From Nitrospirota bacterium (GTDB taxonomy: Bacteria > Nitrospirota > UBA9217): 64,000 nt of DNA. The stretch lies in contig CAWFSF010000002.1 of assembly GCA_963818475.1 (NCBI GenBank), forward strand, positions 480,001 to 544,000, in the 5' to 3' direction. Position numbers and translations under genes: made by a program. Positions 3,067-8,905 of this stretch are shown here, in pieces. The stretch's first letter is position 1; each line of letters starts with the position of its first letter. Below the pieces are notes generated by a model. It was not told the DNA's origin, made no database searches, and worked only from the letters and a program-made list of their open reading frames with translations.

Positions 3067-3768
3067 TCAAGGAACATCGCTTTCTTCCCACGTTACTTCT
3101 TTCATATCAGGAAGAGCTGACAGACGTTTAACAATATCGGACCAGTGTTTTTGACTTTCGTCGCTGTGATGCAGCCGCATGCGGTACGTAACGGTATTTG
3201 CGGAAATGTCCCTGTGGTAATTAACGAACTGGAGAGAGAGGTCTTTGTATTCGGCGAGAAGCTCTTTGATGTGACCCAGGAGCCCTTCCGTGGTAACTGC
3301 CTTCACCGTGAGGCTTGTGTAAATTCTACGGTGAGAAAGGGCTTTTACCGGGTAGGCGAGATAGAGACTCGCAAGAATAATGGCCGTCGTTACTAAGGCG
3401 GTGATAATGTATCCTGCACCGACAGCAAGGCCGATACCGGTAGCCGCCCAGAGCCCCGCAGCAGTGGTCAATCCTCGCACGGAACCCTTGCCTTTAATTA
3501 TCGCGCCAGCCCCCAGAAAACCCATGCTGGCAATTGCATAGGAAGCGATTCTGCCGGGATCAAGACGTACCACGGATTTATCTGAGAGAGTTCGATAGAG
3601 CTCCTCCATGTGCAGGGAGAGCATCATCATGAGGCAGGAGGCCACGCCGACGATAACGTAGGTCCTGAATCCGGCTGCCTGTCCGTGAGCTTCACGCTCA
3701 AATCCTATTGCACCTCCAACAGCCGCTGCGAGCAATAGCTTGCCGATATCATACGTGATCGTGTCCAT
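3067..3768 (-). CDS. MgtC/SapB family membrane protein
   Basis: GGAIGFERE, AGFRTY, DPGRIAS, MGFLGAGAII, VRGLTTAAGLW motifs plus a C-terminal ACT-like domain. Confidence 0.92.
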   Translation of the reverse strand: MDTITYDIGKLLLAAAVGGAIGFEREAHGQAAGFRTYVIVGVASCLMMMLSLHMEELYRTLSDKSVVRLDPGRIASYAIASMGFLGAGAIIKGKGSVRGLTTAAGLWAATGIGLAVGAGYIITALVTTAIILASLYLAYPVKALSHRRIYTSLTVKAVTTEGLLGHIKELLAEYKDLSLQFVNYHRDISANTVTYRMRLHHSDESQKHWSDIVKRLSALPDMKEVTWEESDVP

Positions 3769-3814
3769 AGAATTAACTCCATGCCCTGTTATATTCGTTC
3801 TTAGTCCCCGTGCG

Positions 3815-3873
3815 GTTTAACGATGAGTTGAGCCCCGCGCCGGAGAGCGCGGGGCTCGAACGACTTGTTAGCT
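3815..3873 (-). other. attC site (59 bp) closing cassette 4
   Basis: Minus strand: AGCTAAC (R'') ... GAGCCCCGCGC-loop-GCGCGGGGCTC ... GTTAAAC (R'); overlaps the stop codon of the cassette gene. Confidence 0.9.
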
Positions 3874-4377
3874 TTTATATAGGTCTGACCACGCCAGTCT
3901 CTCCTCAAGCAGTTCATCAATCTCTGAGGTATCTAAATTGATAAGAAGGGCACCGATCTTGTGATCCCCCCTAGCAAGTGCAAGCGCGCCCAGAATACTT
4001 CTGATGAGAAGTGGATCTGTTGTATTCTGCAAATCTGCGATTCCGAGCTGAAGCAGCTTTTGCCAAGCTTGTTCATATTCTTTGAGTAGCCATGAAGGAA
4101 TGGCCGGATTAGCTTTCCGATGCCTTTCAATTTCAATTGTTGATATCAACGCATAAAGATTCCAGTCTCGCTCAGCAACTGTCTGGCTAATTTTCACAAT
4201 ATGGGGTACTGCTGCGTAAGATGCCTCGCCAACATCGCCTTGATGATGTAGATTCTCCCAAAGCTCGCCCCAGACTGCTTTATCAAGTTCAAGTTTCCGC
4301 AGGGCAGGCGTTGGGTCGTATTCAATCTTGTATCCGCCCTTAAGCTTTTGCCATCTTGGGTCATCGAGTTCCATCAT
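3868..4377 (-). CDS. Integron cassette 4: hypothetical alpha-helical protein (WENLHHQGDVGEASYAAVPH motif)
   Basis: 169-aa ORF bounded by attC sites; the cassette starts GTTAGCT, complementary to its own R'' AGCTAAC. Confidence 0.85.
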   Translation of the reverse strand: MMELDDPRWQKLKGGYKIEYDPTPALRKLELDKAVWGELWENLHHQGDVGEASYAAVPHIVKISQTVAERDWNLYALISTIEIERHRKANPAIPSWLLKEYEQAWQKLLQLGIADLQNTTDPLLIRSILGALALARGDHKIGALLINLDTSEIDELLEERLAWSDLYKS

Positions 4378-4385
4378 ATTCCCTC

Positions 4386-4441
4386 AGCTAACGCGGAGTT
4401 CACACGCCGCGAAGCGGTCGGCGTGGAACGACAAGTTTGAC
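4386..4441 (-). other. attC site (56 bp) closing cassette 3
   Basis: Minus strand: GTCAAAC ... CACGCCGACCGC-TTC-GCGGCGTG ... GTTAGCT. Confidence 0.85.
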
Positions 4442-4455
4442 TTCGGCATTAACTA

Positions 4456-4893
4456 CTAGTCGCCTATGAAGCGGATAAAGTGATGTGGCCCTGCGTTCGC
4501 CGTCTCTTGTAAAAGTTTCAAGACTTTTTCTATGTGCAACTTCATTTTAGTGAGTTCTGATTTTAGCTCAAATTCACTCGCATTTGTTCGAGTTTCATAC
4601 TCCTTTACGATGGTTGCATCCCAGTTCGCACGACGTGCGGCCTTCAACCCTTCTTCTCTATATGCACGTAGACGCTTCGTTGTGATTACGGCTAAAGCTG
4701 CCCTGAACTCGTCAATAAGTATCGGAATCTGTAATTGATTAAATATCGTGTCGCCGTATGGATCAATGAATCCGAGACATCTCGTTCCTTCCAGTTTTGC
4801 AGTGCCTAACAGGAGGCTGACAAACCCGCGTGGGTCGCCAAGCGTCTCTTCATCAGCCTTATCCGACGGCTCAATTTTCAAATCAATACCCAT
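4456..4893 (-). CDS. Integron cassette 3: hypothetical protein (CLGFIDPYGDTIFNQLQ motif)
   Basis: True start is probably the ATG at 4893 (MGIDLKIEP...), just after the attC R' GTTGGAC. The ORF-track extension to 4989 reads through the attC. Confidence 0.8.
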   Translation of the reverse strand: MGIDLKIEPSDKADEETLGDPRGFVSLLLGTAKLEGTRCLGFIDPYGDTIFNQLQIPILIDEFRAALAVITTKRLRAYREEGLKAARRANWDATIVKEYETRTNASEFELKSELTKMKLHIEKVLKLLQETANAGPHHFIRFIGD

Positions 4894-4904
4894 AATTATA
4901 TACC

Positions 4905-4976
4905 GTCCAACGACCAAGCTCAGCCGAGGAAGGCCACAAACGCGGCCTGACGTCGGCTGGAGCACTCGTGCTATGT
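4905..4976 (-). other. attC site (72 bp) closing cassette 2; R'' core altered
   Basis: Minus strand: ACATAGC (AAC->AGC) ... CAGCCGA..AGGCC-loop-GGCCT..TCGGCTG ... GTTGGAC. Confidence 0.8.
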
Positions 4977-4981
4977 TGCTG

Positions 4982-5245
4982 CTAGGCACCGAAGAAGACC
5001 CAACTGCTGGACGAACGAGTGACCAAATCTTCTTCGGTTTGAAAAACCCGGACTACCTCGTTTGGATTAAACGGCATTTCCTTCTCACCCTGCACGGAGA
5101 AAACTTCGTTCGGATAGACGAGCAGCACCTTGTGAATGATTCTTCCGTTCGCAAGCTCTACGCTGACAATCGAGCCGTCCTGTTTGAATTCTTCAAATGG
5201 ACCATAGCGACGAATCACATCAATTGGAATTTCATATTTAGCCAT
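4982..5245 (-). CDS. Integron cassette 2: small hypothetical protein
   Basis: 87-aa ORF between two attC sites; the cassette start ATTATGTTGC mirrors its end GCAACATAGC. Confidence 0.8.
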   Translation of the reverse strand: MAKYEIPIDVIRRYGPFEEFKQDGSIVSVELANGRIIHKVLLVYPNEVFSVQGEKEMPFNPNEVVRVFQTEEDLVTRSSSSWVFFGA

Positions 5246-5265
5246 AGGTACTCAGCTCTTTTGCA

Positions 5266-5330
5266 ACATAATGCTCAGCTAAGGGGCGCGGTGGTCTTTT
5301 GCCGCGTCCCTCTTGAGCGTTTTGTTATAT
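5266..5330 (-). other. attC site (65 bp) closing cassette 1; R' core altered
   Basis: Minus strand: ATATAAC ... GCTCAAGAGGGACGCGG...CCGCGCCCCTTAGCTGAGC ATTATGT (GTT->ATT). Confidence 0.85.
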
Positions 5331-6169
5331 TTTTCTACTGGCTTAACACCCTCAACAATTGATGTGGGCTTACTACCTTTAAGTTCTTTTTCTAGCGTTA
5401 ACGGCCCGATTTCTTCTGGTTTAAATGAGATGTTATTTTCTGAAGAGATTTTGCGGATTGTATATGTTCGAATTACTTGTTTCGTAATCCTATTAATAGG
5501 GGCACTCACAACAGTGTCTCCATATTGACGCAAAACAACCTCGTCATCACTCCCTATGACAAGCAAATATTCCACTTGACGTCGTGCTGTTCCGAGTCCG
5601 GCAGAGTATGAAATTGTAAGTAAAAAAATGGTTACTAAAACAACCATGATCCAGCTGACACCGTAATACCTTGAAATATTATCAAGCACGGTATCATAAC
5701 GTAAATCTTCTTCATGTCTGTGCTGAATGCGCTCGGCATAGCTTCGCTTATCTCGGAATGCTAAAGCCGGAAGAATGAAGTCAAAGAAAACCATAAGACC
5801 AAAAAGAATCCAAAGATATTTTAAATTCGCAATATTTTCTCCGGCTATTAACACATAAGCTATGAATACTAAGAGAAAACCATTGTAAAGCCTTAAACGT
5901 CGCCGAATAGGAGTTGGAAGTTTTATCCACAACGGATTGAAGACCTCGGCAGTCTGCCAGAGTAAAAATATGATACCTAGTAAGTAAACAAAAGCAAGAA
6001 ATGTTCCAGGCAATGTGATTTCTATTAGTTGAGCTGATATCCCATAATATTTGACAATACCCAATTCATATACATATGCGACTGCATATGAGAAGGCCGG
6101 AAAAGCGGCGATCAACAGAGCGCTAGAAATCCAAGTCTCTTTTTTGTTTGATTCGTTTTCTGTATTCAT
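5279..6169 (-). CDS. Integron cassette 1: multi-pass membrane hypothetical protein
   Basis: 296 aa, about 5 TM segments, AT-rich; the C-terminus (YNKTLKRDAAKDHRAP) is encoded by the attC itself. Confidence 0.85.
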   Translation of the reverse strand: MNTENESNKKETWISSALLIAAFPAFSYAVAYVYELGIVKYYGISAQLIEITLPGTFLAFVYLLGIIFLLWQTAEVFNPLWIKLPTPIRRRLRLYNGFLLVFIAYVLIAGENIANLKYLWILFGLMVFFDFILPALAFRDKRSYAERIQHRHEEDLRYDTVLDNISRYYGVSWIMVVLVTIFLLTISYSAGLGTARRQVEYLLVIGSDDEVVLRQYGDTVVSAPINRITKQVIRTYTIRKISSENNISFKPEEIGPLTLEKELKGSKPTSIVEGVKPVEKYNKTLKRDAAKDHRAP

Positions 6170-6175
6170 AGCAAT

Positions 6176-6192
6176 TTATAACCAGTTATTGA
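6176..6192 (-). other. Candidate attI simple site
   Basis: Minus strand CAATAACTG-GTTATAA immediately before cassette 1; GTTATA matches that cassette's R'' (TATAAC); no attC hairpin upstream. Confidence 0.55.
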
Positions 6193-6206
6193 CTATAAGT
6201 AAATCG

Positions 6207-6318
6207 GTTTGTAATATTACAAACAAGTTTATAATATTAGATGCCGGTTTGTAATAGTATAAACTTCCAAGGTTTGTAGTATTACAAACCCGACTTAATC
6301 ACTTGGGTTTCTAATATT
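6207..6318. repeat. Array of five 18-bp palindromes (consensus GTTTGTAATATTACAAAC)
   Basis: Copies start at 6207 (perfect), 6227, 6247, 6272 and 6307. The last is split by the IS and continues at 8195-8200. Confidence 0.85.
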
Positions 6319-8188
6319 GATGGTCTCGTAAGAAGTCACGCAGCAAAAAACGCCGCGAATTGCATATCCGACCACTGGAGACTGCCCCAACATCTAATGG
6401 CCGCCATAACTCGCTGCAATCGCTCTTTGAAAGCGCAAGACGACAAGGAAAAGGTGCCTATCGGAGCCGGTTTCCCTTCGGTTTCCCGGTTTCGATACGC
6501 CGCCGCCCGGATGATATTGATCCCCGCCGCTTTTAAGTAAGCGGCGCAGCTCACTGCGGACATGCCCCGAACGCGAAGGTTCTTGATTCCGGTCAAGCGA
6601 TCAAGCTGGGACATGGTCCCTTCGATTCCCGCACGAAAGCGGTACCGGTCCCGAAACTCCGGGGAGTCTTCGTACACACGCCGCCGTGCCAGACGGATTG
6701 CTTTAACGTCGTACCTGAGAGAGCGTCCATGTTTGATAGCTTTCGTCGGGCACGTTTTCTTTCGGGAACAGCCGCGACAGGTTCTTTTTGAGAAAAACGC
6801 GAAGTACTTCTCAGTCTGGCTTTCGGTGTGTTCCGGCGCACATCCCATCGGACATGCGGTTACCTCGTTCACACTGTTCATGGTGAATTCCGTGAGCGAC
6901 GAAGCCTTGGGTCCTGTGCCCTTGACCGGCGAAACGATTTCAACACCCAGAGCTGCCGCCTTCCGGCAGTTCTCGTAACCGCCATAAAGGGTATCGGCCA
7001 GGGCTTCCTTCGGCTTCAGGCCAAGCTCCTCGGTGGTTTCGATGAGCGGGATCAGGGCATGAGCATCGCGCTTGTGGGCAGGTTCGACGATCACACCGGT
7101 GATCAAATTCAGGGTGTCGATATCCTCGGAAGTGCCGTAGCTTTCGGCGACCTGCATCTGATAGCCTTGGCCCTTATAGCCGCTATATCCGGCCTCAGGG
7201 TCGGAAGGGTTCTGCAATGAGTCAGACGAGACGTCTTTGTTCTCTTTGACCAAGACCTGGGTTGTATGCGTATCAACACGCTCCAGGATGCACTGTTCCT
7301 TGAGCAGCCGGACAAGGAACTGATAGCTGGTCATGGTGACAACCGGCTCGTTTCCCCTGAAACGTTCCACCAGGGTGAATACGTCCTCAGCCAGGCTTGC
7401 AAGTGTCTTCGTCGATTCCGAAGGCTTGATCATCGAGAAGACGCCTTCACCCTGCTTGGTCATGTACCGATCGGAGAGAGTCTTGTCCAAAGCTTCGTAG
7501 AGCTCTTTATGATGGCGCTTGAGGTTTACGAGGAACTTCTTGATGGTCTTGACGAACAGTCCGATCCGGCCCAAATGGCGCATGTTGGAAAAGATATGGA
7601 CCGAGTCGAAACGCTGTTTTGATACGTCAACGGAAAAGACCTCGGCAAGTTTCTTGGTAACGTCATCGAAGATATCCTGGTACAGGTTCCGCTCGGTCAG
7701 GACATTCCGCATGGTCCAGAGGGTTTTGGGACTGACATAAGCGTCGGCATCGGCCGTACTGGTAATGTTCAGCGCGTAATGCCACTGGAGATTGTAGGCA
7801 TACTGGTCTACTGCTTCCTCGTCGGTCATATCGTGCATCTGCTGGATCATCATGAGGCCGAGCATGGCGTAAAGCTCCTTGGTCGGCGCTCCCATGACCG
7901 GGTTGTACTTGGAGAAGACCTTCTCGACCGGAAGTGTAGGGAGGATGTGTTCCCGAAAGATCTTTGCCCAGGACGCCTCGATGCGTTGCTTTCGCTTGGG
8001 ACCCAGGAAGGGAAACTGGTCGAACATGTCGTGGGTTTTGTGATCCTTAGTATAGATCATGCCGGCTCCTCAAATGCGATGAGTGATACCGTTGTGTATC
8101 ACAAAACCCCTTGTGCTGCAAAGGAAATATGATGATTCATGCGATTATTTTTGGCTGATTATGCAAATATTATTCTTACGAGACCATC
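6319..8188 (-). mobile_element. IS1182-like insertion sequence (DDE transposase), complete
   Basis: 16-bp TIRs GATGGTCTCGTAAGAA (6319-6334) / TTCTTACGAGACCATC (8173-8188); 6-bp target duplication AATATT (6313-6318, 8189-8194). Confidence 0.9.
6336..8060 (-). CDS. Transposase (DUF772-like N-terminus, DDE core, Cys-rich insertion)
   Basis: 574 aa; QRFDSVHI, LQNPSDPEAGY, ALADTLYG, YRFRAGIEGTMSQL motifs; family assignment from motif recognition only. Confidence 0.88.
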   Translation of the reverse strand: MIYTKDHKTHDMFDQFPFLGPKRKQRIEASWAKIFREHILPTLPVEKVFSKYNPVMGAPTKELYAMLGLMMIQQMHDMTDEEAVDQYAYNLQWHYALNITSTADADAYVSPKTLWTMRNVLTERNLYQDIFDDVTKKLAEVFSVDVSKQRFDSVHIFSNMRHLGRIGLFVKTIKKFLVNLKRHHKELYEALDKTLSDRYMTKQGEGVFSMIKPSESTKTLASLAEDVFTLVERFRGNEPVVTMTSYQFLVRLLKEQCILERVDTHTTQVLVKENKDVSSDSLQNPSDPEAGYSGYKGQGYQMQVAESYGTSEDIDTLNLITGVIVEPAHKRDAHALIPLIETTEELGLKPKEALADTLYGGYENCRKAAALGVEIVSPVKGTGPKASSLTEFTMNSVNEVTACPMGCAPEHTESQTEKYFAFFSKRTCRGCSRKKTCPTKAIKHGRSLRYDVKAIRLARRRVYEDSPEFRDRYRFRAGIEGTMSQLDRLTGIKNLRVRGMSAVSCAAYLKAAGINIIRAAAYRNRETEGKPAPIGTFSLSSCAFKERLQRVMAAIRCWGSLQWSDMQFAAFFAA

Positions 8189-8194
8189 AATATT

Positions 8195-8356
8195 ACAAGC
8201 TTTTCTAATTCGTTGCTCATGATTTTACCGTATTCTATGTACCATGCCTTTGCCTCCGGATCCTATTTTCCCTGCTGCGCCCCTGACCTTCTCCCTTAAA
8301 GCTTTGTCGCCATATCCAATACGCACGGGACCCATGGTGTTCAGGTCTACTTTCAT
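8195..8356 (-). pseudogene. Remnant of a small hypothetical gene (VRIGYGDKALREKVRGAAGK-[W]-DPEAKAWYIEYGKI...), interrupted by the IS
   Basis: Manual translation with one frameshift/stop near 8263. After removing the IS the frame continues as ...ELEKLVILETQVIKSGL to a TAA at 6282-6284. Confidence 0.55.
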
Positions 8357-8401
8357 GTCATCTTACTAAAATACTTTCGGACCCTTCAAAATTCAGCCGC
8401 A

Positions 8402-8857
8402 TCAGCACCAATCGGGATTAGCTGCGGTTATCATCGACTTTGCCGCCAGGATCATCTCATCCAGGTCTTCCAGGTTCACGCTCTTGGCGTCCTGTTCATG
8501 GATGTAGCGCCACCGGGCAAAGGCGGTGTCGAGTGTTTCGAAGTGTTTCAGCAGCTCGTCCGAGGACAGCGCCGTGTTGGAGAACTCGTCGAACCTGACG
8601 AGGAGCGTCTTCCGGGTCTCGTCCTTCATACGCCGAAACAGACCGGCCAGGGGCATGGGGTCGTCGCTGTCGTTGTCCTCGAGCGCCAGCAGGCACTTGA
8701 AGTAGAGCTTGAGCGCCAGGGCGGCGCAGGTCACCGCGGGCTGGGCCATCGACAGGAATGTTCCGTCCGCCTGTTTCGACGGTTTCATGAGGATCGTAGC
8801 CCCAAGGTAGTAAGCGTTTGCAGAGTTGTAGTACAACAGCGCGTTTGCCTTGTCCAT
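8402..8857 (-). CDS. HEPN-like fold hypothetical protein
   Basis: PAVTCAALALKLYFKCLL ... LAGLF ... AFARWRY pattern resembles HEPN-family helical proteins; start at MDKAN after AGGAGG. Confidence 0.6.
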   Translation of the reverse strand: MDKANALLYYNSANAYYLGATILMKPSKQADGTFLSMAQPAVTCAALALKLYFKCLLALEDNDSDDPMPLAGLFRRMKDETRKTLLVRFDEFSNTALSSDELLKHFETLDTAFARWRYIHEQDAKSVNLEDLDEMILAAKSMITAANPDWC

Positions 8858-8905
8858 CTTCTCCTCCTTGCATTCGGACAACTGCGCCAAAAAGGTTGGG
8901 GATCG

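Follow-up and report, generated by a model that had tools for sequence, protein, structure and literature searches.

A conserved gene-palindrome module beside attI is apparently an undescribed variant of the integron platform

The window, the whole 64-kb stretch of Nitrospirota DNA analysed here, carries on its minus strand the head of a cassette array, in the order broken small gene, five 18-bp palindromes, attI and four attC cassettes. Four minus-strand open reading frames (ORFs) follow the attI, each ending at an attC. The features are, in the reading direction of the gene:

8189..8346, minus strand: central segment of the small gene (pseudogene), corresponding to about residues 59-111 of the 121-aa relative L079
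6319..8188, minus strand: IS1182-like element of 1,870 bp with terminal inverted repeats, in the centre of palindrome 5
6336..8060, minus strand: DDE transposase, 574 aa, with DUF772 and DDE_Tnp_1_6
6282..6318, minus strand: 3' end and stop codon of the small gene, overlapping palindromes 5 and 4
6307..6318 (attI-side part) and 8195..8200 (far part, beyond the IS): palindrome 5, rebuilt with 18.9 bits and 2 mismatches
6272..6289: palindrome 4, 1 mismatch against palindrome 1
6247..6264: palindrome 3, 2 mismatches against palindrome 1
6227..6244: palindrome 2, 4 mismatches against palindrome 1, best fit to the family matrix
6207..6224: palindrome 1, perfect copy, its end 24 bp ahead of the putative crossover G
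6176..6194, minus strand: attI simple site, with an L-like box (6194-6188), a 5-bp spacer and an R box (6182-6176)
5279..6169, minus strand: cassette 1 gene, 296 aa, hydrophobic, no family
5266..5329, minus strand: attC 1, degenerate end boxes, fold z -5.4, model match by construction
4982..5245, minus strand: cassette 2 gene, 87 aa
4905..4972, minus strand: attC 2, fold z -3.0
4456..4989, minus strand: cassette 3 ORF, given as the longest frame; its real start probably follows attC 2
4386..4440, minus strand: attC 3, fold z -1.8, from a family with many genome copies (blast)
3868..4377, minus strand: cassette 4 gene, 169 aa
3815..3872, minus strand: attC 4, fold z -5.6, array end, before mgtC

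The original prediction of a candidate attI heading cassettes was borne out, as a G|TT core lies at 6182-6180 and the four minus-strand attC sites were confirmed. Crossover would occur at this G|TT; the box layout is drawn by likeness to attI1. Similarity among the paralogous heads of this genome stops at the attI GTT. Our attC covariance model was trained partly on the window's four attC sites and misses long attC sites. Searches against defence families gave no match for the four cassette ORFs, the ORF upstream or the small protein, and Rfam gave none at E up to 1 across 3500-8900. That upstream ORF (8402-8890, minus strand, 162 aa) lies directly upstream of the gene remnant; it has no Pfam or PADLOC match and is HEPN-like by eye only.

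Five copies of one palindrome had been predicted to start at 6207, 6227, 6247, 6272 and 6307. The starts are correct, giving spacings of 20, 20, 25 and 35 bp, but the copies are not identical, with 0, 4, 2, 1 and 2 mismatches. The further prediction that the fifth is rebuilt by setting aside the IS and one AATATT held, with the 2 mismatches given above. Allowing up to 4 mismatches, the 18-mer has 18 matches genome-wide, 4 of them here and 3 at one other array head.

The small gene had been described as a hidden frame joined across the IS. It does overlap palindromes 5 and 4 and point toward the cassettes, but it is not a single open frame. Compared with the uninterrupted relative L079, the remnant is identical at 121/156 positions before the IS and 132/140 after it, and its 5' half is missing (about the first 58 codons). 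One extra base lies near 8266-8275, and a premature TAG occupies 8265-8263, where relatives have Trp. Recoding of TAG was considered, as two remnants in this genome carry TAG at the Trp codon. We read the window TAG as decay, because intact relatives carry Trp and the window copy is also frameshifted.

The inserted element is flanked by AATATT on both sides (6313-6318 and 8189-8194); were the flanking T counted as part of the IS, the duplication would shrink to 4 bp. Its transposase has IS1182 (NF033551) as best NCBIfam match, at E 9e-44 and 150 bits, below the cut-off of 270. A second copy, 86% identical, is present in this genome (G000) at C6:215825-217711. Elements of this IS1182-like family, or a short derivative, account for at least seven separate insertions at or near the centres of platform palindromes, in both orientations: the window element, that at C6:215839-217710, and those at L097, L114, L107, L087 and L157. 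The preference for palindromes is not exclusive, because many IS ends lie elsewhere in this genome.

No intI was found in or near the 64-kb window, and none exceeds the TIGR02249 cut-off in this genome; at 91% completeness, the assembly may lack an intact copy. Internally deleted intI remnants are present. Clusters of attC sites without an integrase are termed CALINs, and intI loss is among the origins listed for them in an excerpt of PMC8618304, citing Cury et al. Since no IntI passes the cut-off and only deleted intI remnants occur in the genome, the window is a CALIN in which attI has been retained. As a decayed integron head, the window copy is likely inactive for capture, given that the genome yielded no IntI and no intact small gene.

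This one genome has attI-like heads of three architectures, at least 14 in all. Nine are of the palindrome type and lack an intact small gene; at least five more are of other types. Heads of a second type, at C2:207487 and C3:52423 (minus strand; L013 and L014), have a different palindrome and a motif that is presumably a sigma-54-like promoter. A third, compact type lies beside intI remnants at C5:461.0k, C6:787.9k and C6:1772.7k. Directly 3' of the attI at L014 (L014:8302-10233) is a unit of a XerD-like recombinase and an IS91-like transposase, and the same first bases follow attI in the unrelated loci L040, L056, L178, L203 and L212.

To place the remnant in context, we collected intact relatives of the small gene. 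They form a large, unnamed family of about 115 aa (intact copies 111-133 aa), whose members, where named, are almost all called 'hypothetical protein'. A profile search yielded 3,547 proteins at 90% clustering, or 2,528 clusters at 50% identity. With a paralog remnant as tblastn query, matches were obtained in 31/64 genomes of the class. Distribution is patchy, because 10/301 genomes sampled from the phylum of genome G064 carry the gene. The mobile-element search gave one partial plasmid match, no phage match and one partial match to a viral contig. There was no consistent fused domain among 13 longer matches and 12 long representatives.

For the neighbourhoods we examined two sets: the 80 best genome loci out of 569, labelled for the most part as Nitrospirota and Geobacterales, and the 80 best out of 592 distant metagenome loci, which are without taxonomy labels; the loci in these sets are related and partly duplicated. 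The proposed module of conserved gene, palindromes and attI is a recurrent one, both in genomes of Nitrospirota and Geobacterales and among the distant metagenome loci. Its order is gene, palindromes, attI, attC, and this order is conserved with fixed spacing; the palindromes are linked to the gene, and IntI lies beside many intact copies. Arrays of this type comprise 3-7 inverted 18-mers, with the consensus GYWTMTA-N4-TAKAWRC from 307 sites. At least three sites were found in 57/80 genome loci, on which the matrix was trained, but in no control (78 upstream, 58 downstream, 80 shuffled); at least two were found in 56/79 distant loci outside matrix training. Spacings cluster at 20 (97 cases), 24-25 (44), 34-35 (14) and 43-45 bp (59). 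The first site usually lies inside the small gene's coding sequence, in its LEKHIxxD end. Scoring loci with at least two sites and enough sequence, we found a GTT 23-24 bp past the last site in 46/64 genome loci and 21-24 bp past it in 39/57 distant loci, with 11 more at 41. Of 33 attC matches, 32 lie downstream and share the strand of the gene; the matches occur in 20/80 loci, and many contigs end just past attI. Four loci (L125, L142, L146 and L158) combine divergent C-termini with arrays of clearly different palindromes.

The original prediction placed the module in place of intI and proposed capture or expression of cassettes without a linked integrase. This part failed: a whole or partial divergent intI lies directly upstream in 42/80 genome loci (32 mostly complete, 10 fragments). 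Nor is intI always adjacent, as 32 of these loci have none within at least 2 kb; the remaining 6 are too short. Among 79 distant loci (L238 omitted), 8 have a divergent intI, 10 a co-oriented one and 23 none within at least 2 kb, and 38 are too short. All seven adjacent integrases tested, in both orientations, pass the TIGR02249 cut-off. No IntI was found in 10 of the 31 gene-bearing genomes of the class, remnants included; intact genes occur among such genomes, which fits a recombination-independent role or recent loss. Compact integrons of the same class work without the module.

The presence of palindromes tracks the small gene, not IntI. At 18 intI loci without the gene (at least 200 bp upstream; six short loci and one gene-bearing locus dropped), the best palindrome score was 5.6 against a threshold of 9. 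The alternative that the earlier reading had named as counting against it, that the repeats are plain IntI accessory sites, is contradicted by this lack of palindromes in 18/18 loci. The module accompanies distant IntI lineages, in both orientations. In a quick tree of 61 integrases, in which some 'no gene' labels are truncated contigs, it falls to either side of the longest branch, and 3-5 changes are needed. The integrases of L049-L073 and L079-L158 (Nitrospirota, Geobacterales) are about 470-490 aa long, with an N-terminal extension of about 150 aa, which in L095 includes a second SAM_4-like stretch. We also considered whether the palindromes are LexA boxes. The 18-mer differs from a GAAC-N4-GTTC-like box near intI in 8/80 loci, which we take to be the LexA box. 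In L071, L074, L075, L061, L067 and L068 a GTGAAC-N4-GTTCAC box near the intI start presumably resembles a Gram-positive-type SOS box; compact platforms have repeated GAATAT/ATATTC motifs in its place.

AlphaFold2 models the small protein as two small beta-alpha-beta-beta domains (mean pLDDT 86.7, pTM 0.51) joined by a linker of variable length. DUF5710 (PF18974) matches the C-terminal part in 16/16 members, with a best E of 4e-6 and scores around the gathering cut-off (26.4 bits against 26.5 for the first member). Many homologs carry a precomputed DUF5710 match, and the top viral structure rows for this domain are likewise DUF5710. The predicted likeness to DUF5710 therefore stands for the intact relatives; the one remnant tried, a paralog from this genome, gave no match. 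Proteins with DUF5710 include Rep_3-DUF5710 plasmid initiators, according to an excerpt of PMC11233732. The small protein resembles them in its C-terminal domain by sequence, and differs from the proteins of that excerpt in its N-terminal, predicted dimer-forming domain, for which we found no family match. An NCBIfam search of the whole protein gave nothing credible. Structural comparison gave no PDB sequence match, no Foldseek match at E 0.001 and a best VIA Z of 3.8, which indicates neither a known nor a new fold; no solved-fold match pointed to DNA binding.

The small protein is predicted to form a homodimer. Its homodimer prediction scored 0.58, against 0.00 for the best of three controls, with the interface at residues 37-54 around a near-invariant KTVE strand. 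Its runs share at least 69% of contacts, and pLDDT is at least 80. The mark used was reached by 20/30 solved pairs and 1/23 single chains.

Protein and palindrome sequences were then compared for co-variation. Residue 5 is the top of 112 columns for the outer half-site letters, and residue 6 is the top for the centre letters. Leu5 occurs with GCAT-type sites in 71/71 cases and a non-Leu residue with GTTT in 22/24; L102 and L115 (Leu5) are of the first kind, L079 (Ser5) of the second. Dual coding does not explain these links, because some 300 bp separate the codons from the sites. Under phylogenetic control the covariation is not significant: the DNA trait changes three times on the tree, leaving two well-supported independent pairs (sign test p = 1). 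Of the co-variation that the original prediction proposed to look for, residue 5 tracking the half-site is seen, but not significance in independent pairs. From the symmetry and this weak covariation, we infer that the small protein is the best candidate ligand of the palindromes.

Our preferred reading, to which we give a nearly even chance, is that the small protein acts as a sequence-specific accessory factor for attI recombination. It would pair as a homodimer and bind the phased 18-bp palindrome array beside attI, and the bound array would shape the attI complex, so setting how readily IntI inserts cassettes. The symmetric dimer, the symmetric site, the phased spacing and the near-fixed crossover distance suggest a nucleoprotein array set against an IntI-bound simple site. 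Its effect on recombination is read from position only, and stimulation would look the same as inhibition.

A possible but rather unlikely alternative is that the protein, bound to the same array, gates transcription: as the first-gene product it would act as a roadblock or cover internal promoters, giving negative feedback on cassette read-through. The small gene is oriented toward the cassettes, the first operator lies within the gene's own 3' end, weak promoter-like pairs occur inside the array, and the module persists without an adjacent intI. A strong sigma-70-like promoter (11/12 matches) lies upstream of the gene in L084, yet a promoter match of at least 10/12 within 330 bp upstream was found in only 16/80 loci. 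Such a gate also leaves unexplained the 1-2 bp tolerance in crossover distance. As for a Pc promoter, the corresponding upstream region of the window is deleted. Transcription gate and accessory factor can both hold.

It is improbable, in our estimate, that IntI or a host protein is what binds the palindromes, with the small gene inherited along with the platform as a mere passenger. The palindromes do outlast the gene at nine heads of this genome, nearby IntIs carry the long N-terminal extension, and the accessory repeats of attI1 bind IntI1 (excerpt of PMC3146285). Against IntI as the ligand, the same long IntI type occurs without palindromes and short IntIs occur with them, and the half-site does not fit GTTRRRY. 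A host regulon was considered in a genome scan with the matrix and rejected: of its 77 matches, the clustered ones form 8 clusters, all at array heads.

We give little credence to the view that the repeats are single-strand hairpins, of RNA or DNA, recognised by the protein as in an attenuator or antiterminator. Compared with shuffles, the window array does fold more favourably (z -5.3), and both domains are small alpha/beta folds; repeated palindromes, however, fold by construction, and no arm position shows excess pairing. Because mirror positions 5/14 pair in 36.5% of the 307 sites, below the 46% of a within-locus shuffle, duplex binding is favoured even though the whole array can fold. Hardly credible is a stand-alone recombinase that replaces IntI and captures cassettes by itself, since the near-invariant tyrosines of the RYRYD motif and the lack of an adjacent intI in 32/80 and 23/79 loci (at least 2 kb upstream) are set against true IntIs beside 42/80 and 18/79 loci, graded intI deletions in relatives and this genome, attI and attC sites of the ordinary IntI type, and a small protein with no recombinase or HUH family match and no His among its invariant columns.

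Integron platforms are described as consisting of intI, attI and a promoter. The boldest form of the accessory-factor reading would add a fourth component in a widespread class of environmental integrons: a dimer of no known fold that reads its own operators through the first beta-strand, wraps attI in a fixed phase and controls IntI directly. This extended version we regard as doubtful. If true, it would be the first dedicated accessory or directionality factor for integrons, and integrase-less attI heads could be served in trans, so that several arrays per genome are kept in use. More generally, an extra conserved gene whose phased array is fixed to the crossover, beside distant IntI lineages, would mean an added layer of control, on the capture of cassettes or on their expression, in bacteria of soil, sediment and groundwater.

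The module is real and conserved, and apparently an undescribed variant of the integron platform; the window has a dead copy of it. In the full-text literature searched, which covers few subscription papers, we found no description of a gene and palindrome array between intI and attI, and no report of a dedicated accessory factor for integrons. Excerpts of two Geobacter genome papers list multicopy palindromes (PMC2700814, PMC2996986). A search for the short motifs gave no match in 12/19 and 12/15 of their respective supplements, where picture alignments could list the repeats. Accessory proteins have been suspected for V. cholerae IntIA (excerpt of PMC8946536), and the module offers a concrete test of the idea that chromosomal IntIs may need them.

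XerCD at cer uses ArgR and PepA, and lambda Int uses Xis and IHF; here, too, the tyrosine recombinase would be under the control of phased proteins arrayed next to its core site, but we found no sequence or fold link to those systems. The class 1 platform likewise has an intI, a G|TT simple site, extra sites on the promoter side and attC cassettes downstream; at attI1 the extra sites are the accessory repeats DR1 and DR2 beside the simple site (excerpt of PMC3146285). Unlike the attI1 described there, the present platform has 3-7 inverted 18-mers with the half-site GYWTMTA instead of direct repeats of the IntI core, and a gene for a two-domain protein of about 115 aa between intI and attI, overlapping the first site. 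With CALINs as outlined in the excerpt of PMC8618304, the window shares attC sites without a neighbouring intI and an intI loss that is visible in this genome; unlike them it keeps its attI and the platform module. The gene and 18-mer together also provide an easy tag for attI sites where a survey by attC would count the array as lacking an integrase.
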